A program made the position numbers and the translations under genes. The notes under the pieces were generated by a model. That model did not search any database, was not told the DNA's origin, and saw only the letters and a program-made list of their open reading frames with translations. Positions 9,626 to 25,090 of a stretch of 64,000 nt of DNA are shown piece by piece (within the stretch, counting starts at the first letter, position 1; every line of letters begins with the position of its first letter). Source of the DNA: an uncultured Acidobacteriota bacterium. GTDB lineage: Bacteria; Acidobacteriota; Thermoanaerobaculia; Gp7-AA8; CAVUJZ01. Location of the stretch: NCBI GenBank assembly GCA_963741905.1, contig CAVUJZ010000010.1:2099-66098 (forward strand). The letters run 5' to 3'.

Positions 9626-11170
9626 ATGCCACCCACTCTTCAGGAGAATCTGACGCGTCTTCCCCTGTTGCGGATTCTTCTCGCCATCATCACGGGGGTC
9701 GCTCTGGGACTTTCCTTTCCCGGGTTCGGCCTGACCAAACTGGCGTTTCTGGCCTTCATTCCGCTGATCTGCGCGGTGGTGACCGCCCGGGGAGCGTGGG
9801 GGGCCTTCGGCCTGGGCTGGACCGCGCTGACGGTCACCTGGCTGATCAATGTTCCCTGGGTCATCGCAGTGATGAAGACGCACGGGGGGATCCCACTGTC
9901 GGTCGGAATCACCCTTTACGTCGCACTGGCGATGGTTCTTGGGCTGTACGGAGCGTTTTTCGCCGTGCTGGTCTGGTGGCTCCGTCTGGGCGAACGGTTC
10001 GGGCCCTGGATGATGATTCCGCTGGCGTGGTCGGTCTCCGAGTACGCCCGGGCGCACCTGATCAACGGCTTTCCGTGGAATCTGCTGGCCGAGGCCATCG
10101 TCGACACCACCTTCATCCAGGTGGACCGCTTCGTGGGCCCTTACGCCATCGGTGCCCTGATGACGGTTCCGTCGGTGATCATCGCCTGGAACATCATCCA
10201 GCCGATGCCGAAGCGGAAGCCGGTGATCTCGCTGATCTGGCTCGCGATCTTCCTGATCGCCTGGGGCGTCATCGGCGGGATGGTGATGGTTCAGGAACAG
10301 AGCCGGATCCGCAACGAGGAAAAGACCACGGTGGCTCTTCTGCAGCCCAACATCTCCCAGCAGATGCGCTGGGATGAGGGAAACCTCTACGACATCTTCA
10401 GCCGGATGATCGAGATGACCGATTCGGCGATCGCTCAAGGTGCAAAGACGGTGATCTGGCCCGAGTCGACCGTACCGCTGAGCTTCGCCACCACGGACTT
10501 TTACCGCGACTGGGTCGAAAGCACCTCCCGTGAGCGGGATGTCAACATCATTCTCGGCTCGGTCGCGGAAGATCCGAAGGATCATACGAAGATCTGGAAT
10601 TCGGCTTATCTCGTCTCCGACGGGACCATCATCAGCCGGTACGACAAGATGAAGCTGGCTCCGTTCGGCGAGTACGTTCCGTTCCGGCGCCTGCTTTCAT
10701 TCGCACCGAAGCTGGTCAAGGATGTCGGCGAATTTCAGTTTGGAACCAACAGTCACCCTCTGAAAGGTCGCTTCGCCTACGGCCCCGCGATCTGCTACGA
10801 GATTCTTTATCCCGAGGTCGTGGCGAACCAGGTGCGGCATGGTGCGGACCTGCTGGTGACCATCACGAACGATGGATGGTTCGAGCGCACCGCGGCGCCC
10901 GAGCAGCATTTCGATGGGGCACGGCTGCGGGCGATCGAGACGGATCGCTGGCTGGTGCGCTCTGCGACCACCGGAATCACGGCCATTGTTGACCCGACCG
11001 GTAGAATCGTGGAGAGGCTGCCGGTGGATCAGCAGGCGATGATCGTCGGCGGCGTCGCCGCGAGAACGAATGAGACTTTGTACGTGAGGTTCGGCGACTG
11101 GTTCGCCATCGCATCGATCATTGCGGTGGCGGCATTCGTGATCCTCCGAAGGAGACGGAAAGATGCGTGA
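9626..11170 (+). CDS. lnt: Apolipoprotein N-acyltransferase
   Basis: 514 aa. Multi-TM N-terminal half plus a CN-hydrolase domain (VIWPES...ICYE...NDGWF). Confidence 0.9.
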   Translation: MPPTLQENLTRLPLLRILLAIITGVALGLSFPGFGLTKLAFLAFIPLICAVVTARGAWGAFGLGWTALTVTWLINVPWVIAVMKTHGGIPLSVGITLYVALAMVLGLYGAFFAVLVWWLRLGERFGPWMMIPLAWSVSEYARAHLINGFPWNLLAEAIVDTTFIQVDRFVGPYAIGALMTVPSVIIAWNIIQPMPKRKPVISLIWLAIFLIAWGVIGGMVMVQEQSRIRNEEKTTVALLQPNISQQMRWDEGNLYDIFSRMIEMTDSAIAQGAKTVIWPESTVPLSFATTDFYRDWVESTSRERDVNIILGSVAEDPKDHTKIWNSAYLVSDGTIISRYDKMKLAPFGEYVPFRRLLSFAPKLVKDVGEFQFGTNSHPLKGRFAYGPAICYEILYPEVVANQVRHGADLLVTITNDGWFERTAAPEQHFDGARLRAIETDRWLVRSATTGITAIVDPTGRIVERLPVDQQAMIVGGVAARTNETLYVRFGDWFAIASIIAVAAFVILRRRRKDA

Positions 11171-12270
11171 CGGGATGCCGGAAAAGATCGATGAGCTGAA
11201 AGAACGGATGACTGCGATTCGAGGTTATCTTTGACCTCGACAGTGCGCAGAAAAGCCTGAAGGAAATCGAGCAGCAGATGTCCGCCGATGGCTTCTGGAA
11301 TGACCAGGAGCGGGCTCAGGAGGTCGGACGCAAGCGGGCCCGGATCGAAAAGCGGCTCCAGACCGGCAGATCTCTCGAGGAGAAGAACGAGGAGATCAAC
11401 GTTCTCCTCGAACTGGGGAAAGAGGGAGAGGACGTCACTGCCGACCTCGAAAAGCTGCTGACTCAGCTCGAAAAGGACATCTCCGAGGTGGAGATGCGGA
11501 TGAAGCTGTCCGGTGAGCACGACGACCGCGACGTCATCTTCTCGATTCATCCGGGAGCAGGGGGGACCGAGTCCCAGGACTGGGCGGACATGCTGCTCCG
11601 GATGTATCTCCGCTACTGCGAGCGGCACGACTTCGAGACGGAAATGGTCGAGTATCAGGCGGGGGAAGAAGCCGGGGTGAAGAGCGTGACCTTCATGGCC
11701 CGCGGCGACTACGCATACGGCTATCTCAAGAGTGAGCACGGGGTGCATCGGCTGGTGCGGATCTCGCCCTTCGATGCGAACAAACGGCGACATACCTCCT
11801 TCGCCTCCGTCTACGTCTATCCCGACATCGACGAGGAGATCGAGATCGAGGTTCAGGACAAGGACCTGCGGATCGACACCTACCGTTCCTCCGGGGCGGG
11901 AGGGCAGCGCGTCAACGTCACCGACTCCGCGGTGCGCATTACCCATCTGCCGACGGGTCTGGTCGCCACCTGCCAGAACGAGCGCAGTCAGGGGCGCAAC
12001 CGCGAGACGGCGATGAAGCTTCTCAAGGCCAAGCTCTACCAGCTCGAATTGGAGAAACGTCAGGAAGAGCAGGCGAAGCTGGAAGGGGAAAAGAAGGAGA
12101 TCGGGTTCGGCAGTCAGATTCGATCCTATGTCCTCCAGCCCTACCAGCTCATCAAGGACATGCGCACCGGCTACGAGGTGGGAGATGTTCAGCGGGTGCT
12201 CAACGGCGAGCTCGACGGCTTCATCGAGGCCTATCTCGGCCAGAAGGCGAGAACATCGGCGGCGGAGTAG
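11163..12270 (+). CDS. prfB: Peptide chain release factor 2 with programmed +1 frameshift: join(11163..11231,11233..12270)
   Basis: Frame 0 from ATG 11163 reads MRDGMPEKIDELKERMTAIRGYL and ends at CTT TGA C (11229-11235), with SD-like GAGG 3 nt upstream. This matches the classical prfB recoding site. The +1 frame continues DLDSAQKSLKEIEQQMSADGFWND... and contains GGQ (SGAGGQRVN) and SPF (RISPFD). The track lists only 11278-12270. Confidence 0.9.
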
Positions 12271-12280
12271 CCCGGAACGG

Positions 12281-13669
12281 GACAAGTTCGGGTGGCGAAA
12301 AAGGTGGCTTGACGCTGCCGAGGATCGAAGCGGCAACGGTGGGGTAGTCGATGGTGAATCGACCGCGCCGCGGTTGAGTCTCGGGAGTCCAGGGATTCAG
12401 GCCGGAATCATCCCACCGCCATCTTCGTCCGCACGCCGCGCGCTTCGCGCTTGCCGCGCGGGAAGTTTGTCGAGGTTTCATGGGCTGCGCAGGGATCCCT
12501 TTTCTCCTGAGTTGGAACCGCGTCGCGGGAGCGGGCGTGGGAACGCCCGCTCCACCTGCACCGGGCGTCTCGCAGGTGGCCGAACTTTGTCACGGATGCG
12601 GCGGGATGCCGATCGTACTCGGGATTGCGGCGGCGAGCATCCGGGACAAGTTCGGGTGGCGAAAAAGGTGGCTTGACGCTGCCGAGGATCGAAGCGGCAA
12701 CGGTGGGGAAGTCGATGGTGAATCGACCGCGCCGCGGTTGAGCCTCGGGAGTCCAGGGATTCAGGCCGGAATCATCCCACCGCCATCCTCGTCCGCACGC
12801 CGCGCGCTTCGCGCTTGCCGCGCGGGAAGTTTGTCGAGGTTTCATGGGCTGCGCAGGGATCCCTTTTCTCCTGAGTTGGAACCGCGTCGCGGGAGCGGGC
12901 GTGGGAACGCCCGCTCCACCTGCACCGGGCGTCTCGCAGGTGGCCGAACTTTGTCACGGATGCGGCGGGATGCCGGTCGTACTCGGATTGCGGCGGCGAG
13001 CATCCGGGACAAGTTCGGGTGGCGAAAAAGGTGGCTTGACGCTGCCGAGGATCGAAGCGGCAACGGTGGGGAAGTCGATGGTGAATCGACCGCGCCGCGG
13101 TTGAGTCTCGGGAGTCCAGGGATTCAGGCCGGAATCATCCCACCGCCATCCTCGTCCGCACGCCGCGCGCTTCGCGCTTGCCGCGCGGGAAGTTTGTCGA
13201 GGTTTCATGGGCTGCGCAGGAATCCCTTTTCTCCTGAGTTGGAACCGCGGCGCGGGAGCGGGCGTGGGAACGCCCGCTCCACCTGCACCGGGCGTCTCGC
13301 AGGTGGCCGAACTTTGTCACGGATGCGACGGGATGCCGGTCGTACTCGGATTGCGGCGGCGAGCATCCGGGACAAGTTCGGGTGGCGAAAAAGGTGGCTT
13401 GACGCTGCCGAGGATCGAAGCGGCAACGGTGGGGAAGTCGATGGTGAATCGACCGCGCCGCGGTTGAGCCTCGGGAGTCCAGGGATTCAGGCCGGAATCA
13501 TCCCACCGCCATCCTCGTCCGCACGCCGCGCGCTTCGCGCTTGCCGCGCGGGAAGTTTGTCGAGGTTTCATGGGCTGCGCAGGAATCCCTTTTCTCCTGA
13601 GTTGGAACCGCGGCGCGGGAGCGGGCGTGGGAACGCCCGCTCCACCTGCACCGGGCGTCTCGCAGGTGG
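12281..13669. repeat. Tandem array of about 3.8 copies of a 363-bp GC-rich, hairpin-rich unit, flanked by the 9-bp direct repeat CCGGAACGG (12272-12280 and 13670-13678)
   Basis: The motif GGGACAAGTTCGGGTGG recurs at 12279, 12643, 13006 and 13369 (periods 364/363/363). By eye, copies 2 and 3 differ at 4 positions. Confidence 0.9.
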
Positions 13670-13720
13670 CCGGAACGGACAGAGTCCGCCTACCATGGTC
13701 CAGTGCTCTCGTCATCCGCC

Positions 13721-14197
13721 TCACTCCTCCAGCAGGAGGTTCTGAATGCTGAGCGTGGCGGTAATCAGGGACAGTGCCGCGAAGGTCCAGATGAATCGGG
13801 TCGAGATCGGGATGAGGTGGGCACTTCCGGTGATCAGATCGGCCAGACGGAACTGAACGACCCAGTGGTTCAGCGTCGGCCACTGCCATGCGAGCAATGC
13901 CGCCCACGCCAGCGCCACGCATCCCCAGGCGACCTGCTGAGCGAGGGTCACCGGGCGAGAGGCGCGCTCCGCGGCATCCCGATTTCTCATCAACTGAGCC
14001 TTCAGCCAGATCAGGCCGGGGTCCGGTAGCGGTCCCCATTCCAGGGGCGCACCGGAGAGATCCTTCATGACGCCGTCGGTCTCCACCGCCAGCGAGCAGG
14101 TTTCGCAATCAGCGATGTGCAGAGCCAGAGACTCGGTCATCGTTCCTTCGACGACGGCGCTCAGTACCTCGTCTTCGTATCGGCATCCTCGTTTCAT
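13721..14197 (-). CDS. Anti-sigma factor (zf-HC2-like N-terminus, one TM segment)
   Basis: 158 aa. H-x3-C-x2-C-like motif (LHIADCETC). 4-bp overlap with the upstream ECF sigma gene. Confidence 0.7.
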   Translation of the reverse strand: MKRGCRYEDEVLSAVVEGTMTESLALHIADCETCSLAVETDGVMKDLSGAPLEWGPLPDPGLIWLKAQLMRNRDAAERASRPVTLAQQVAWGCVALAWAALLAWQWPTLNHWVVQFRLADLITGSAHLIPISTRFIWTFAALSLITATLSIQNLLLEE

Positions 14198-14775
14198 CGG
14201 TTCACCTCGTAGCCGCCGTGTTCCTGGAGCAATGCCGCCAGTCGCTTCCGGGCACGGAACAGCAGAACTTTCACGCTCTTTTCCTTCACGTCCAGGGCCT
14301 TGCCGATGCTCCGGTGATCCTCACCTTCCACGTGGGCCATCCAGAGCAGCAGCCGGTCGCGTGGCTCGAGCTCGGCGAAGACCTTCTGCAGGTCGTGCCG
14401 GAGCAGCGGGCGTGGTTCGACGACCGGCTCCCGCGAGTCCTGCAGCTTCATCGCTTCGCGTTCGCGTCCGGTCTGGCGCCAGTGATCGATCAGCAGGTTC
14501 GAAGCGATGGTGAACAGGAACTTCTTCAGGCGCTTGTCATCCTGGCGGCTGTCGGCCGCGCGGGCGAACCGGAAGAACGTCTTCTGAAACAGATCATCCG
14601 CCAGAGAAGGATCGGAGGTGATCCGGGCGAGGTAGCCCCAGAGTGGACGAGACCAGGTTCGATAGAACAGCTCGAACTCCGCCTCGTTCATCACCTGAGG
14701 TTCACCCCGGCTCCCGCCGGAGTGAACCCGCTCGTCGACCAGAGCTTCCGTTCCGGACATCATCGCGGCCGTCAC
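14194..14775 (-). CDS. ECF-type RNA polymerase sigma-70 family factor
   Basis: Region 2 (LADDLFQKTFFRF...) and region 4 (LLLWMAHVEGEDHRSIGKALDVKEKSVKVLLFRARKRL) are recognisable. Confidence 0.9.
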   Translation of the reverse strand: MTAAMMSGTEALVDERVHSGGSRGEPQVMNEAEFELFYRTWSRPLWGYLARITSDPSLADDLFQKTFFRFARAADSRQDDKRLKKFLFTIASNLLIDHWRQTGREREAMKLQDSREPVVEPRPLLRHDLQKVFAELEPRDRLLLWMAHVEGEDHRSIGKALDVKEKSVKVLLFRARKRLAALLQEHGGYEVNR

Positions 14776-15245
14776 GATCCCTGGGTGCTGTCTCCATTCC
14801 CATGCAACAGGCCCATCGTCTTCGACAGCCGCTGAGAGAGGAGAGCCGAGACCACGAATCCCGCGCCGAGGAAGAATCCGATCACTCCGATCAGGAATGG
14901 CGGTTCCTGGGTGGGGTAGCTATATCCCGCGAGGAACGAGGTCACCATGAAGCCGATCGACAGCAGGATGATGATCACTCCGGCCCGCAGGGCACCCAGG
15001 ATCCGGTCGGCCGGGTGAATGGCGGGGCTCTGGGTGAAGCCCTCGAGATATTTCTTCCCGTCGGGAGTCTGCAGGAATCGGACGAATTCCTCCGAGGAGC
15101 CGAATTTGTCGATCATGCGGGTGTGAATCTGGGTCTGAGCTTCGATCCCCCGCCGGGTGGATCTGGTGTGGCCGATCACCCAGACCACGAAGCCGACCAG
15201 CACGAAGCTGGAAATAGGAATCATTGCGACGTACAAGCCTTCCAT
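14772..15245 (-). CDS. Hypothetical membrane protein, first gene of the ECF sigma operon
   Basis: I chose ATG 15245 because GGAGG lies 5 nt upstream (the track starts at 15290). Several hydrophobic segments. 4-bp overlap with the sigma gene. Confidence 0.6.
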   Translation of the reverse strand: MEGLYVAMIPISSFVLVGFVVWVIGHTRSTRRGIEAQTQIHTRMIDKFGSSEEFVRFLQTPDGKKYLEGFTQSPAIHPADRILGALRAGVIIILLSIGFMVTSFLAGYSYPTQEPPFLIGVIGFFLGAGFVVSALLSQRLSKTMGLLHGNGDSTQGS

Positions 15246-15309
15246 ATGTCCTCCGATCAGAGCCGCCGTCGGGCGACTTCTGCCTTTCAATACGATAAGC
15301 CGGTACAGG

Positions 15310-15497
15310 GGTTAACCCGGATTTCTCACACCATCTCTGCTGCGGAGGCGGATCGCGGCCTGTCTGCTACGTTGCGCACAGCTTCGGCTCCTCAACATAG
15401 TCACCACTACGCCTACGTCGCCGAAGCCGCGCGCGCCTTGCATCCTGGCCACTCTCCGCCTCCTCGCGAGGAGACGGCGTGAGAAATCCGGGTTAAC
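15310..15497. repeat. 188-bp foldback (MITE-like) element with perfect 19-bp terminal inverted repeats GTTAACCCGGATTTCTCAC / GTGAGAAATCCGGGTTAAC
   Basis: Inverted repeats at 15310-15328 and 15479-15497. The interior is also imperfectly self-complementary (GCGGAGGCGG vs CCGCCTCCTCGC; AGCTTCGGC vs GCCGAAGC). Confidence 0.7.
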
Positions 15498-15580
15498 GCG
15501 AGTTCGGCAAGCGACGGAAGTGGCCTCTCAAGTCTGGGGCAGATCGATTCTCAGCTCAACCTCTCTGCTACCATCCCGCT

Positions 15581-17101
15581 GTGCGCGTCGCCTTCCTCAC
15601 CCCTCTGCCGCCGGTCCGATCCGGGATTGCGGGGTATTCTCGGATGATCCTGCCGGCTCTGGCAGAACGGATGGATCTGACGGTGGTGGTGGACCAGCCG
15701 GAGTTCGAGCTGGATGCCGATCTTCCGGTGATTCAGATTGCCGAGTATCAGGCGCGGCGCGACCACTTCGATCGGGTGATCTGCCAGATCGGCAACAACC
15801 TCCATCACGAATTCGTCTATCGAGAGGCATGGGAGCGTCCCTCTGTCGCGGTCTTTCACGACGCGATCCTCCACCACCTGATCGTCGAGATGACGGCGGC
15901 TCGCGGGGACGGTGAAGGCTACATCCAGGCTCTGCGTGAGAATCACGGCGCGCCGGGCGAAGCGTGGGCGCGAGGAATTCTGGCGGGGCTGCATCTGGAG
16001 CAGGGGAAGTTCATCTTTCCGGCTTCCGGAGCCCTGGCCAACCGTTCGCGACACGTCATCGTGCACAACCGCTGGGCGGAGGCTCTGCTTCGTGAGCAGG
16101 GGGTGACCGTGCCGATCTCGGTCGTCGAGCATCCTCTGATCCGGAACGGAGGCGGAGCCGGCCTGCGGCAGGGTACCCGCGAGCAACTAGGCTACGGCGC
16201 CACCGATACGGTTGTCGGCATGTTCGGGTTCGTGACCGGCGCGAAGCGCCCTGAGGTCGTGTTCGAGGCATTCGCCGGGGCGTTTCATGAGGACCCGCGG
16301 CTCCGATTGCTCGTCGTCGGCCAGCCGAGCCCCAACGTCGATCTGAATCAGCTCGCGCTGAGCGCAGGGATTTCGTCCGATGTGTGGCAGTCGACCGGCT
16401 ACGTGAGCGACGAAGAGTTCGATCAGTATCTTGCGGCGGCGGATCGGGTCGTCAACCTTCGGTATCCCAGTGCCGGTGAGACTTCCGGAGCGCTGTTGCG
16501 GATTCTCGCCGCGGGCAAGCCGGTCGCGGTGAGTGATTACGCGCAATTCGCTCTGCTTCCTCCCATCGTCACCCGGATCCCCTTCGGCGAAGACGAGATT
16601 CCGGCGGTTCGTTCGTTTCTGCTTTCGGATGAGCGGCCGGATCCTTCCGCCCTGGAGGCCTGGCTCGAGGAGCACACCAGTCTGGATCTGGCGGTGGAGG
16701 GCTATGTCCGCGCGCTCGAAGTTCCGCCGGAAAGAACGGCCCCGTGCAGCGTTGTCTCTGCTCTTCCTCTCTTTCTCCGGGTGCGGGTCCTCGGGGTCTC
16801 CCGCACCCGCGAAGAGGGGGCGGAGCGGGTCTCCATCGAGATCCGGAACGAAGGGCCGACGGGTCTGCGCGCGGTGGGGTACGGCGAGCTGGAATACCTG
16901 ATGATGGCCAGAATCCTCCAGCGGGACGGGGGAACGCTTCTGCGCCGCCTTCATCTGGATCGCGATCTCGGGCCGGGAGAGCGGACCAGCCTCCGGTTCG
17001 ACCTCGAGGATGGAGCCGGACCGCGGACGATCGAGCTTTTCGACGCGGTCGACGACCTGCCGGCGCTCGATTCGGTCCCGCTCTATCGGGGGACGTTGTG
17101 A
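15581..17101 (+). CDS. Glycosyltransferase (GT4/GT1-like N-terminal two thirds) with an extra C-terminal domain
   Basis: 506 aa. MRVAFLTPLPPVRSGIAGYS is a typical GT4 N-terminus, and a later ...PSAGETSGALLRILAAGKP resembles the E-x7-E region. Confidence 0.75.
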   Translation: MRVAFLTPLPPVRSGIAGYSRMILPALAERMDLTVVVDQPEFELDADLPVIQIAEYQARRDHFDRVICQIGNNLHHEFVYREAWERPSVAVFHDAILHHLIVEMTAARGDGEGYIQALRENHGAPGEAWARGILAGLHLEQGKFIFPASGALANRSRHVIVHNRWAEALLREQGVTVPISVVEHPLIRNGGGAGLRQGTREQLGYGATDTVVGMFGFVTGAKRPEVVFEAFAGAFHEDPRLRLLVVGQPSPNVDLNQLALSAGISSDVWQSTGYVSDEEFDQYLAAADRVVNLRYPSAGETSGALLRILAAGKPVAVSDYAQFALLPPIVTRIPFGEDEIPAVRSFLLSDERPDPSALEAWLEEHTSLDLAVEGYVRALEVPPERTAPCSVVSALPLFLRVRVLGVSRTREEGAERVSIEIRNEGPTGLRAVGYGELEYLMMARILQRDGGTLLRRLHLDRDLGPGERTSLRFDLEDGAGPRTIELFDAVDDLPALDSVPLYRGTL

Positions 17102-20842: not shown

Positions 20843-20903
20843 GGATCCTCCGAATCCTACCGCGAATCTGCAGAGTTCGCGCCGGGTCGGTGAGAGGCTA
20901 AGA

Positions 20904-21071
20904 GGTGAGACGGTGAGACGGTGAGACGGTGAGACGGTGAGACGGTGAGACGGTGAGACGGTGAGACGGTGAGACGGTGAGACGGTGAGATGGTGAGACG
21001 GTGAGACGGTGAGACGGTGAGACGGTGAGACGGTGAGACGGTGAGACGGTGAGACGGTGAGACGGTGAGAC
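20904..21071. repeat. Short tandem repeat array A: (GGTGAGAC) x 21
   Basis: 168 bp of perfect 8-bp units with a single variant (GGTGAGAT near 20990). A degenerate copy lies at 20889-20896. Confidence 0.95.
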
Positions 21072-21150
21072 GGGTGGCCCCGGGGGGGAGCCGGAGGCCC
21101 AACGCCAACCAGACGTGCCTCCCACCCTCCACGCCCGATCTACTTCTAAC

Positions 21151-21347
21151 CTCCAACCTCTAACCTCCAACCTCCAACCTCCAACCTCCAACCTCCAACC
21201 TCCAACCTCCAACCTCCAACCTCCAACCTCCAACCTCCAACCTCCAACCTCCAACCTCCAACCTCCAACCTCCAACCTCCAACCTCTAACCTCCAACCTC
21301 CAACCTCTCAACCTCTAACCTCTAACCTCTAACCTCTAACCTCTAAC
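21151..21347. repeat. Short tandem repeat array B: (CTCCAAC)n core flanked by CTCTAAC variants, about 28 units
   Basis: 197 bp = 27 units of 7 bp plus one 8-bp variant (CTCTCAAC), read directly. Confidence 0.95.
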
Positions 21348-21455
21348 CTTTCACCTTCTGCCAGGCGATCCCTCCGATTCCGGGCCCGCACCTTCCCCCG
21401 GACCGTGCTCCCCGATATGATTCGCCCCGCAAACAACTGAAGAAGGGAGTATCTG

Positions 21456-22337
21456 ATGGCAGACATCAAGAAGGTCGGAGTGCTCGGCTGTGGGCTGATG
21501 GGCTCCGGAATCACTCAGATCGCGGCCCAGGCCGGGTATCAGACGGTGGTGGCCGAGGTCGAACAGAAGTTTCTCGACAAGGGACGGGCGGGGATCGAGA
21601 AGAGTCTCGGCCGTTTCGTCGAAAAGGGAAAAATGACCGCGGAGGATCGCGACGCATGCCTCGGACGGGTCCAGACCACCACGAAGCTGGAGGATCTGGC
21701 GGAGTGCGACATCGTGGTCGAAGCGATCGTGGAGAATGCCGAGGTGAAGCGATCCACCTACTCGGCGATCGACAGCATCGTGAAAAAGGATGCGATTTTC
21801 GCATCCAATACCTCCTCGCTGACGATCACCGAGCTGTCGATGGCCACGGCTCGGCCGAAGCAGTTCGTGGGGCTGCACTTTTTCAACCCGGTGCCGATGA
21901 TGAAGCTCGTCGAGGTGGTTCGAACGATCCTCACCTCGGATGAGACCTTCGACCGAGCGTTCGCCTTCGCGAAGTCGCTCGGCAAGGAACCGATCGCCTG
22001 CCGCGACAACTCCGGATTCATCGTCAACCGTCTGCTGGTGCCCTATCTTCTCGATGCGATCCGGGCCTACGAAGAGGGCGTCGGCTCGATCGAGGACATC
22101 GACAAGGGGATGGTGCTCGGCTGCGGTTATCCGATGGGCCCGTTCACCCTGCTCGACTTCGTCGGACTCGATACCACCTACTACATCACCGAGGTGATGT
22201 TCGAGGAGTATCACGAAAAGCGGTTCTCTTCGCCTCCGCTGCTCCGCAAGATGGTGCTGGCAGGCCGGCACGGCCGGAAGAGCGGCGCAGGGTTCTACGA
22301 CTACTCCGGCGAAAAGCCGGTGGCGATGGATCGGTAG
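21456..22337 (+). CDS. hbd: 3-hydroxybutyryl-CoA (3-hydroxyacyl-CoA) dehydrogenase
   Basis: VGVLGCGLMGSGI Rossmann motif, HFFNPVPMMKLVEV, 293 aa. Confidence 0.9.
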   Translation: MADIKKVGVLGCGLMGSGITQIAAQAGYQTVVAEVEQKFLDKGRAGIEKSLGRFVEKGKMTAEDRDACLGRVQTTTKLEDLAECDIVVEAIVENAEVKRSTYSAIDSIVKKDAIFASNTSSLTITELSMATARPKQFVGLHFFNPVPMMKLVEVVRTILTSDETFDRAFAFAKSLGKEPIACRDNSGFIVNRLLVPYLLDAIRAYEEGVGSIEDIDKGMVLGCGYPMGPFTLLDFVGLDTTYYITEVMFEEYHEKRFSSPPLLRKMVLAGRHGRKSGAGFYDYSGEKPVAMDR

Positions 22338-22460
22338 TTCTGGAGTTCTGGAGTTCTGGAGTTCTGGAGTTCCGAGTTCTGAAGTTCTGGAGTTCCGGAG
22401 TTCCGAGTTCTGAAGTTGTGGAGTTCTGAAGTTGTGGAGTTCTGGAGTTGGAGTTCTGGA
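22337..22460. repeat. Short tandem repeat array C: (GTTCTGGA)n, about 16 units with variants (GTTCCGA, GTTCTGAA, GTTGTGGA, GTTGGA)
   Basis: Starts on the last base of the hbd stop codon TAG (22335-22337) and ends 10 bp before the crt SD. Confidence 0.95.
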
Positions 22461-22482
22461 GCTGGCGAGTGAGGAGGAACTG

Positions 22483-23365: not shown

Positions 23366-24616
23366 ATGGAAGAGCGAGTCGACGATCTGATCTATGACTG
23401 GAATGTGGCCGGCGAGAAGCCGGTCTACCCGGGGCGTCCGATCCAGTTCGATGACGAGACGCTGCGGGACGGGCTCCAGTCCCCGTCAGTCAAGGATCCT
23501 TCGATCGAGGAAAAGCTCCGGATCCTCCATTTCATGGAAGAGATCGGGGTGGATTCTGCCGACATCGGTCTTCCGGGCGCCGGTCCGCACGTTCAGGCGA
23601 CCGTGCAGCGTCTGGCCGAGGAAATTCGCGATCAGAAGATGAAGGTCGCGGCGAACTGTGCGGCCCGGACGCATCAGAACGACATTCGACCGATCGCCGA
23701 GATCTCGCAGCGGGTGGGGATTCCCATCGAGGCCTGTACCTTCATCGGTTCCTCCCCGATCCGTCAGTTTGCCGAGGAATGGGATCTCGACTGGCTGCTG
23801 GAGCAGACGACCAAAGCGGTTCGATTCGCGGTGGGCGAGGGACTTCCGGTGATGATGGTCACCGAGGACACCATCCGGGCGAAGCCCGAGGACGTGGAGA
23901 AGATCTACACCGCGGCCATCGAAGCCGGTGCGACCCGCGTTTGTGTTTGCGATACGGTCGGCCACGCGACCCCCTGGGGCGCGCGGAATCTGGTGCGCTT
24001 CGTTCGTGGCATCGTCGAGCGGGTCAATCCGGAGGTGGGCATCGACTGGCACGGGCACTCGGACCGGGGGCTGGGGGTGATCAATACCATTGGAGCGATC
24101 GAGGGCGGTGCCGACCGGGTTCACGGCTGCGCTCTCGGGATCGGCGAACGGGTCGGCAACACTCCGATCGATCTGTTGATGGTCAACCTCAAGCTCCTGG
24201 GCTGGATCGACAACGACCTGCACAGCCTCCCTGAATATGTGAAGTTCGTCTCCCGGGCGACGGATGTGATGCTGACGGATCAGTATCCGGTCTTCGGGCG
24301 GGACGCTTTTCGCACCGGAACCGGTGTTCATGCGGCGGCGATCATCAAGGCGAAGATGAAGGGGAGCGACTGGCTTGCGGACCGCGTCTACTCCGGAGTT
24401 CCGGCGGGAGAGTTCGGCCTGGAGCAGATCATCGAGGTCGGGCCGATGTGCGGCCTGTCGAATGTCATTTACTGGCTGCAGGTTCACGGGTATCCTCAGG
24501 AGGAAGATCTGGCGAAAGAGATCTTTGGCAAAGCAAAATCCTCGAACCGGATTCTGACGGACGAGGAGCTTCACGGGGCCGCGCGCCGCTGGCTCGACCT
24601 GCAGGCGACGGGGTGA
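23366..24616 (+). CDS. LeuA/HMGL-like family protein (2-isopropylmalate/homocitrate synthase-like aldolase-type TIM barrel)
   Basis: [12 protein letters not shown] and [28 protein letters not shown] motifs. ATG 23366 preceded by GGGGGA. Exact substrate not determinable. Confidence 0.75.
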
Positions 24617-24943
24617 GTGGTGAGAGTGAGCGGTGAGAAGTGAGCGGTGAGAAGTGAGCGGTGAGAAGTGAGCGGTGAGAAGTGAGCGGTGAGAGTGAGC
24701 GGTGAGAAGTGAGCGGTGAGAAGTGAGCGGTGAGAGAGTGAGCGGTGAGAAGTGAGCGGTGAGAGTGAGCGGTGAGAAGTGAGCGGTGAGAAGTGAGCGG
24801 TGAGAAGTGAGCGGTGAGAAGTGAGCGGTGAGAAGTGAGCGGTGAGAAGTGAGCGGTGAGAAGTGAGCGGTGAGAAGTGAGCGGTGAGAAGTGAGCGGTG
24901 AGAAGTGAGCGGTGAGAAGTGAGCGGTGAGAAGTGAGCGGTGA
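24613..24943. repeat. Tandem repeat array D: (GTGAGCGGTGAGAA)n, about 23.6 units of 14 bp with a few 13- and 15-bp variants
   Basis: The first unit contains the TGA stop (24614-24616) of the upstream gene. An inverted partial unit at 24972-24983 pairs with 24930-24941 (12 bp). Confidence 0.95.
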
Positions 24944-25003
24944 TCGGTCGCACGGCAGAACAGTCGTCTCGACCGCTCACTTCTGACCTCTCGCCGTCTT
25001 TCT

Positions 25004-25090
25004 GCCCGAGTGGCGAAATTGGTAGACGCAGCAGACTCAAAATCTGCCGTCCTCCCGGACATGCCGGTTCGAGTCCGGCCTCGGGCACCA
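25004..25090 (+). tRNA. tRNA-Leu (anticodon CAA), long variable arm, encoded CCA
   Basis: Acceptor GCCCGAG/CTCGGGC, anticodon stem-loop GCAGA-CTCAAAA-TCTGC, variable arm GTCC..GGAC, T arm GCCGG-TTCGAGT-CCGGC, then A-CCA. Confidence 0.9.

Follow-up and report, generated by a model that had tools for sequence, protein, structure and literature searches.

Directly downstream of prfB, the gene for release factor 2 (RF2), a metagenome-assembled genome of the Thermoanaerobaculia (Acidobacteriota) carries a tandem array of about 3.8 near-identical copies of a 363-bp unit. The DNA analyzed is a 64-kb stretch of a 235,932-bp contig; the whole stretch is called the window, and the array occupies positions 12278-13672 of it. 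The array is non-coding. The explanation that we favor, and to which we assign a probability of about one half, is that the array is a recently amplified local DNA tandem repeat, or 'macrosatellite', whose role would go no further than that of a hairpin-rich buffer separating transcription units that have only recently come to converge. The evidence so far does not point to a new class of RNA gene or of mobile element.

Extent and variation of the array

Tandem Repeats Finder (TRF) reports the interval 12278-13672 as the sole long-period array in the window (period 363, 3.8 copies, 99% matches, score 2711), and unit alignment, blastn and nhmmer delimit the same feature. The original prediction, made from the sequence alone, had described a 363-bp unit in about 3.8 copies, and both TRF and the alignment confirm this together with the starts that it had given for the units. 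The components of the array are as follows.

12278-13672, no strand assigned: tandem array of the 363-bp unit, 3.8 copies
12279-12642: unit 1, 364 bp
12643-13005: unit 2, 363 bp
13006-13368: unit 3, 363 bp
13369-13672: unit 4, 304 bp, cut short at unit position 304
12272-12280, + strand: left-hand CCGGAACGG, the 9-bp direct repeat, sharing the 2-3 nt at its end with the start of unit 1
13670-13678, + strand: right copy of CCGGAACGG, its first 3 nt overlapping the end of the cut-short unit 4
12643-12949, no strand assigned: segment S1 as it stands in unit 2, where it takes up unit positions 1-307; the array has four S1 copies
12950-13005, no strand assigned: joint X in unit 2, 56 nt, TTTGTCACGGATGC...GCATCC

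Seven unit columns are variable (T/A, T/C, T/C, G/A, T/G, G/A and A/G; five transitions and two transversions), and the sole indel of the array is one extra G in a G-run of unit 1 (GGG vs GG). Units 2 and 3 differ at unit positions 101, 216, 245 and 323, which are the four differences expected from the earlier description. The shuffling of variants that it had also proposed is visible at sites 101 and 216, where all four allele combinations are present among the copies; variants have thus been exchanged between copies. The array starts 8 nt after the prfB stop codon and ends 48 nt from the stop codon of a convergent gene for a putative anti-sigma factor. Deletion of 1398 bp would leave 52 bp between the two convergent stop codons, so the earlier picture of an insertion with about 50 bp remaining is retained, with the distance to the prfB stop corrected from 10 to 8 nt.

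Ends and origin of the array

How could such an array have arisen? The 9-bp repeat CCGGAACGG had been predicted to bracket the array at 12272-12280 and 13670-13678, and it does; the two copies are 1398 bp apart, or 3.85 units. Between them lie two kinds of segment. S1 is a segment of ~300 bp that is rich in hairpins and palindromes, and X is palindromic and occurs in three copies (12586-12642, 12950-13005 and 13313-13368) that are found between S1 copies only and at neither outer end. The direct reading of the array is DR - S1 - (X - S1) x 3 - DR, where DR is the direct repeat CCGGAACGG, and four S1 copies with three X copies account for the copy count of 3.84. Together with the start of the S1 that follows it, X makes up a junction hairpin of ~75 nt (12944-13018 in unit 2). 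The left end reads CCGGAAC and then GGGACAAG..., every internal joint reads ...GGTGGCCGAAC - X - GGGACAAG..., and the right end reads ...GGTGGCCGGAAC and then GGACAGAG. The internal joints resemble the direct repeat (CCG-AAC ... GGG) with X inserted, and the outer repeats resemble a joint without X.

This arrangement is consistent with an origin in three steps. The starting point would have been one S1 between two copies of the 9-bp direct repeat, and slippage or unequal exchange between these copies would have doubled it. The new junction would then have gained X as a fold-back insert, and homologous unequal crossing-over with gene conversion among S1 copies would have produced the four copies with their shuffled variants. 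The original prediction had been unable to separate a target-site duplication from microhomology, and in-situ duplication at the 9-bp direct repeat fits the ends better. At each end the repeat shares 3 nt with the unit, it is similar to the joints, and its frequency in the window is raised: eight copies are present (at 1617, 5000, 10679, 12272, 13670, 14748, 16141 and 62755) where shuffles lead one to expect 1.6, and in 100 shuffles the count always stays below eight. This excess may stem from codon or peptide bias, and the over-representation makes the flanking repeat less special than it appears.

The ends also bear on integration from a circle. Had a circular multimer entered by a single crossover, the number of units would be whole and one end would bear X. 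The length inserted is 3.85 units and neither end has X, and simple site-specific integration of a circular multimer is therefore excluded. Insertion of a ready-made linear concatemer would leave the likeness of the flanking repeat to the joints unexplained; in-situ duplication is the most economical account. Two further comparisons at the ends were tried and rejected. The prfB 3' end and the unit end agree at 4 of 21 ungapped positions, which is a low-complexity CGGCGGCG run only, and the similarity of the missing 59 bp of the unit to either flank is within 1 sd of shuffles.

Searches for further copies and for a mobile element

Further copies of the unit had been named by the original prediction as evidence to look for, and none was found. 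The unit has no other copy in the window (blastn), none in 87 related loci amounting to 1.04 Mb (blastn and nhmmer), and none in a one-genome-per-GTDB-species set, the JGI metagenomes or IMG/VR (pattern scan and tblastn with the translated unit). Among plasmids and phages blastn gave one 44-nt chance match and nothing else, and exact DNA patterns run against IMG/VR matched a 17-mer and a 19-mer, neither of which extends past the pattern. Literature searches turned up nothing specific on comparable bacterial long-unit arrays.

One alternative is a mobile or satellite element of a non-autonomous kind, or a small replicon concatenated by rolling-circle replication, that entered the chromosome as a linear multimer, duplicated 9 bp of its target and was opened at the junction hairpin. 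In its favor, both ends coincide exactly with the direct repeat, the number of copies is fractional, each end is placed inside the junction hairpin or next to it, and a 3.3-kb block around the array is itself inserted relative to related genomes. However, terminal inverted repeats are absent (the start, GACAAGTTCGGGTGG, is not complementary when set against the reverse complement of the end, CCACCTGCGAGACG), and the inverted repeats that were found in the array are internal. No recombinase, transposase, Rep, integrase or reverse transcriptase is present among the large open reading frames scanned in window positions 1-42 kb, which are all housekeeping genes, in keeping with the earlier statement that no transposase or recombinase is encoded. 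No hammerhead, twister, HDV-like or other self-cleaving ribozyme is detected at E ≤ 10 over 12100-13800, and the predicted circular folds of the unit, with 62-66% of bases paired, are branched rather than rod-like. To this must be added the failure to find a second copy in any of the collections searched, the exclusion of circular-multimer integration, and the resemblance of the flanking repeat to the outer parts of the joints (CCG-AAC ... GGGACA), which is predicted by a local origin and not by a foreign insert. We consider insertion of a mobile element quite unlikely.

A related idea is that the unit represents, as DNA, a small structured RNA of a new kind or a rolling-circle satellite of Acidobacteriota, which would be transcribed or replicated in unit-length molecules and would have been captured in the chromosome as a linear concatemer that was opened at the junction hairpin and that generated a 9-bp target duplication. 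Under this idea the lack of homologues would follow from the poor sampling of the lineage, since no RF2 more than 82% identical exists in 5.8 billion protein clusters. We regard it as very unlikely. The original prediction had offered three candidate explanations, namely tandem genes for a structured RNA, a non-autonomous satellite or mobile element, and an integrated concatemer of a small rolling-circle or viroid-sized replicon. None of the three gained support, and the circular-multimer form of the last is the one that the ends exclude.

The array was also compared with known classes of repeated element. Like tandem duplications and variable number tandem repeats (VNTRs), it consists of near-identical copies in head-to-tail order with a short direct repeat on either side. 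In a comparison with integron attC sites, the base of the junction hairpin reads GCCGAAC ... GTTCGGG with one bulged T, both cores depart from the consensus, RYYYAAC for R'' and GTTRRRY for R', and the junction stem is continuous, with no unpaired central spacer. The boundaries do not match those of cassettes, which fall at G|TT: homology on the left starts 8-9 nt before GTT and the right end is not at GTT. As to cassette content the units are non-coding, and no tyrosine recombinase was found among the large frames scanned in window positions 1-42 kb. A CRISPR array, with its short repeats of 23-55 bp and unique spacers, was rejected because whole 363-bp units repeat with no unique spacers, and a diversity-generating retroelement or retron was rejected because no reverse transcriptase was found among the neighbors and the variants are not adenine-specific.

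The open reading frame across the array

One frame is open for 421 codons across the array. A gene caller has called it (P0001, 12480-13745, + strand), and it is stored in public protein collections as a predicted protein of 421 residues. It could be argued that this is a real gene for a protein of 121-residue repeats, and four of the seven substitutions are synonymous in its frame, a proportion that is not significant (p about 0.1). However, the codon score of the frame (-0.17) and its GC content at third codon positions (GC3; 0.65) point to a wrong frame: out-of-frame readings of real genes have a mean score of -0.17, whereas the neighboring real genes have codon scores of 0.32-0.50 and GC3 of 0.76-0.82. 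All six frames of the array look non-coding. No ribosome-binding site precedes the ATG at 12480, the frame is broken in unit 1 by the 1-nt indel, and no Pfam domain is found in it. A search of an index of 5.8 billion protein clusters and a phmmer search of 1.84 billion representatives returned no protein relative other than the array's own open reading frame; one extra match (P0123) was rejected as an unrelated low-complexity repeat. We estimate the chance that one of six frames stays open over 121 codons at 66% GC to be about 1 in 4. The protein-gene explanation is hardly credible at all and is effectively refuted, and P0001 is likely a false gene call caused by a repeat length that is divisible by three. 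That no credible protein is encoded, as had been proposed from the sequence, is thus upheld by codon score, GC3 and the lack of any homologue or domain.

Stems, palindromes and RNA folding

Every stem named in the original prediction is present in the units: GGAGCGGGCGT/ACGCCCGCTCC, CCACCTGC-N12-GCAGGTGG, GTCGAT-GGTGA-ATCGAC and the junction hairpin, the last of which appears in both the minimum free energy (MFE) and the centroid folds. In addition, each unit contains an imperfect palindrome of ~166 bp that the earlier description lacked (unit positions 85-250; 36-nt arms, 78% complementary; nhmmer reverse self-hit E 0.0015). In unit 2 these elements lie as follows.

12711-12727: GTCGAT/ATCGAC stem
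12727-12762 and 12857-12892: arms of the 166-bp imperfect palindrome
12892-12917: perfect 11-bp hairpin
12916-12943: CCACCTGC/GCAGGTGG stem

Does this structure make the array an RNA gene? One hypothesis is that the units are tandem genes, or a repeated 3'-UTR (untranslated region) module, for a new structured non-coding RNA made from the + strand together with prfB and perhaps processed to unit length. The array begins only 8 nt after the prfB stop codon with no terminator between, the stable hairpins number four to five per unit, and both kinds of fold contain the one at the junction. The + strand is G-rich and has the more stable fold (-180 vs -156 kcal/mol on the - strand), and pairing at variant 216 (A/G) is kept, as G-U, on the + strand only. 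Against this, the folding signal relative to shuffles is only about -2 (linear unit, z -2.1 on the + strand and -2.4 on the - strand; circular unit MFE, z -1.7 and -2.9, respectively). Rfam 15 at gathering thresholds gives only a tRNA at 25004-25087 in the whole window, and at E ≤ 10 over 12100-13800 only miRNA and Chlorobi-1 noise of 13-19 bits; the comparison with Rfam that the original prediction had suggested therefore matched no family to the array. The array contains no sigma-70 promoter and no intrinsic terminator, so that no unit has either of its own. No homologue exists from which conservation or covariation could be read, and four copies that are 99% identical give no covariation signal and hence no structural information. 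A new structured RNA is on this balance unlikely.

Two other promoter types were considered and rejected. An ECF-type (extracytoplasmic function) promoter, GGAAC-N16-17-CGT, as judged by eye, matches each unit loosely at a single place and does not match the flanks, and the spacing of a sigma-54 promoter is off by one.

Reliability of the assembly

A fundamental question is whether the array, or its copy number, is an artefact, one or a few copies being present in reality and the assembler having joined strain variants or looped reads into 3.8. The sequence comes from a metagenome-assembled genome, and exact stretches common to the copies reach 236, 203 and 187 bp. Exact repeats of 236 bp exceed the k-mers of common short-read metagenome assemblers, and read pairs or long reads are needed to span them. 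Two of the seven substitutions hit GATC, and the sole indel is GGG vs GG; GATC substitutions and homopolymer indels are patterns typical of long-read consensus errors, and some of the differences between copies may be of this kind. A contig from a near-identical strain (L001; Logan run ERR11718636, 1013 bp) stops 10 nt short of the array, where its positions 976-1013 match window positions 13683-13720. Its 975 coding bases all agree with the window, and in the 39 bases of spacer beside the array it departs from the window by a substitution and a 1-nt deletion; it gives no information on copy number. On the other side, assemblers usually collapse tandem repeats rather than expand them, the 236-kb contig around the array joins it cleanly to unique sequence at either end, five of the seven substitutions are transitions, as expected of real mutations, and a loop in the assembly graph would not yield a cut-short last unit and a flanking 9-bp repeat. 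For these reasons an artefact is doubtful.

Genomic setting and the lineage-specific block

The array is one part of a larger difference from related genomes, whose features, with the genes on either side, are these.

11163-12270, + strand: prfB, release factor 2 (PF03462, PF00472), stop codon at 12268-12270
12271-15580, no strand assigned: lineage-specific 3.3-kb block, absent from all sampled relatives
13721-14197, - strand: putative anti-sigma factor, convergent with prfB, no Pfam match
14194-14775, - strand: ECF-type sigma factor (Pfam Sigma70_r2 and Sigma70_r4_2)
14772-15290, - strand: small membrane protein, first gene of the operon, with a weak DUF6249 match below the Pfam cut-off
15303-15504, no strand assigned: palindrome of ~200 bp, at the far end of the block from the array
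15581-17101, + strand: group-1 glycosyltransferase-like gene (Pfam), by synteny the ancestral downstream neighbor of prfB

In all relatives examined (RF2 72-82% identical) the gene order is lnt-prfB-glycosyltransferase-NUDIX, and the spacer between prfB and the glycosyltransferase gene is 20-370 bp, as seen by tblastx synteny, in the gene maps of two loci (L084 and L087) and in the spacer sequences. None has a junction between prfB and the anti-sigma gene. Since relatives keep prfB next to the glycosyltransferase gene, it is the whole block at 12271-15580 that is lineage-specific: the array, the opposite-strand operon (DUF6249-like, ECF sigma and putative anti-sigma) and the ~200-bp palindrome. 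The earlier claim that the locus carries an insertion thus stands relative to relatives, with the piece that they lack being the entire 3.3-kb block and not the array alone. The lineage itself is isolated, as its best RF2 match among 5.8 billion protein clusters is 82% identical.

The gene at 13721-14197 is assigned a putative anti-sigma function because it follows the ECF sigma gene and because a three-gene operon is conserved in one related locus (L083), where the order DUF6249-like, sigma, anti-sigma is repeated. Its protein is an orphan with no relative in the 5.8-billion protein index. Its only distant relatives, in L082 and L083, are in the same operon with no unit downstream. The palindrome at 15303-15504 has 27-nt arms (GTTAACCCGGATTTCTCAC...) at 15311-15337 and 15471-15497 that are 93% complementary, with an nhmmer reverse self-hit of E 1.3e-15, and nhmmer finds no homologue of it among the related loci. 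It sits between the divergent sigma operon and glycosyltransferase gene and may hold divergent promoter or operator sites. As for prfB, it contains a programmed +1 frameshift site, CTTTGAC, at 11229-11235, and its short first frame starts with the ATG at 11163, which overlaps the lnt stop codon.

The 3' flank of prfB is a hotspot, where relatives carry unrelated palindromic elements of 150-200 bp or short arrays. Palindromes of a GTCATCCYGAG family, 150-200 bp long, lie directly 3' of prfB in L003 (7050-7190), L004 (7060-7230) and L008 (7030-7220), and others of this family lie near 7000-7140 in L019, L021 and L071; L002 has inverted (GGAGAAT)x5 arrays after prfB instead. The GTCATCCYGAG family is absent from the window.

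Elsewhere in the window, four intergenic arrays of short period are found.

20888-21073: (CGGTGAGA)x23
21148-21349: (AACCTCC)x29
22336-22461: (GAGTTCTG)x16
24612-24948: (GTGAGCGGTGAGAA)x24

These arrays sit between housekeeping genes (FdhD-like, 3-hydroxyacyl-CoA dehydrogenase, enoyl-CoA hydratase and HMGL-like) and just before the tRNA gene, and they indicate that this genome tolerates or generates tandem repeats. The AACCTCC array would place 29 anti-Shine-Dalgarno-like CCUCC motifs (GGAGG on the other strand) upstream of a gene that starts near 21441.

Discussion

We propose that the array originated in place by duplication of a single S1 segment and that it has been amplified recently. The prfB gene and the sigma operon would not have faced each other until the 3.3-kb block came between prfB and its ancestral neighbor, the glycosyltransferase gene. 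Judging from position, the array would be transcribed passively, on one strand as a 3' trailer of prfB and on the other by transcripts running on from the ECF operon. The GC-rich hairpins that it contains are at most a putative barrier to read-through or RNA decay between the two transcription units.

Several known systems resemble the array in part. Intergenic minisatellites and VNTRs, such as the mycobacterial MIRU/ETR loci, and duplications at short direct repeats share with it a head-to-tail, non-coding, intergenic arrangement, terminal short direct repeats, and variants that are shuffled as by unequal exchange. Typical bacterial intergenic VNTR units are about 10-100 bp. The unit described here is 363 bp, several times longer, and unlike them the array is a composite of S1 and X and an orphan at a single locus. 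Elements of the REP/BIME type, and the GTCATCCYGAG palindromes of relatives, are alike in their GC-rich hairpins at a gene's 3' flank between convergent units and, by analogy, in a likely effect as a barrier to read-through or RNA decay; the array differs from them in having neither sequence similarity to them nor dispersed copies, in being tandem, and in its much longer unit.

Two comparisons touch on an RNA. Tandem small-RNA arrays such as Listeria LhrC1-5 and the Rhodobacter CcsR1-4 'cuckoo' RNAs also consist of repeated structured units 3' of a gene, where co-transcription is possible. The units of LhrC1-5 and CcsR1-4 are about 70-120 nt long, diverged, conserved across species and equipped with their own terminators or processing sites, whereas the units here are 363 nt long and 99% identical, with no promoters, terminators or homologues. 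The genomic tandem copies of viroid-like or ribozyme satellites (the newt and Schistosoma hammerhead repeats and carnation CarSV) share the unit of ~360 nt, the tandem arrangement and the many stems. Unlike these, the array is in a bacterial host, has no ribozyme at E ≤ 10, does not fold into a rod, and has ends that mismatch integration of a circular multimer.

A number of points weigh against a local macrosatellite and hold our estimate at about one half. Units of this length are rare in non-coding bacterial DNA, with only two other arrays of period at least 60 bp in 1.04 Mb of related loci, and within the source genome the search for dispersed copies covers the 64-kb window only. With the best RF2 match at 82%, there is no close relative, and among the relatives sampled neither a single-copy ancestral state nor variation in copy number was seen. 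The order of events is the one that we infer, and X may have been gained before the duplication; a ready-made linear concatemer may also have been inserted with a 9-bp target duplication. The unit folds somewhat beyond shuffles, although the effect is modest (z -1.7 to -2.9), and the two variants within the long stem give a G-T wobble or a mismatch in a way that is not random, so that the array may have a role as RNA. Finally, the barrier function is a prediction from the position of the array.

If the array is real, the non-coding tandem repeat in this core part of the chromosome would have an unusually long unit, and it would come from an acidobacterial class that is poorly sampled. It also carries a warning for annotation, as the array has been turned into a 421-residue 'protein' in public databases. 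It would provide a good test case for asking how short direct repeats and palindromes give rise to bacterial macrosatellites, and whether spacers rich in hairpins act as buffers where transcription units have newly come to converge.

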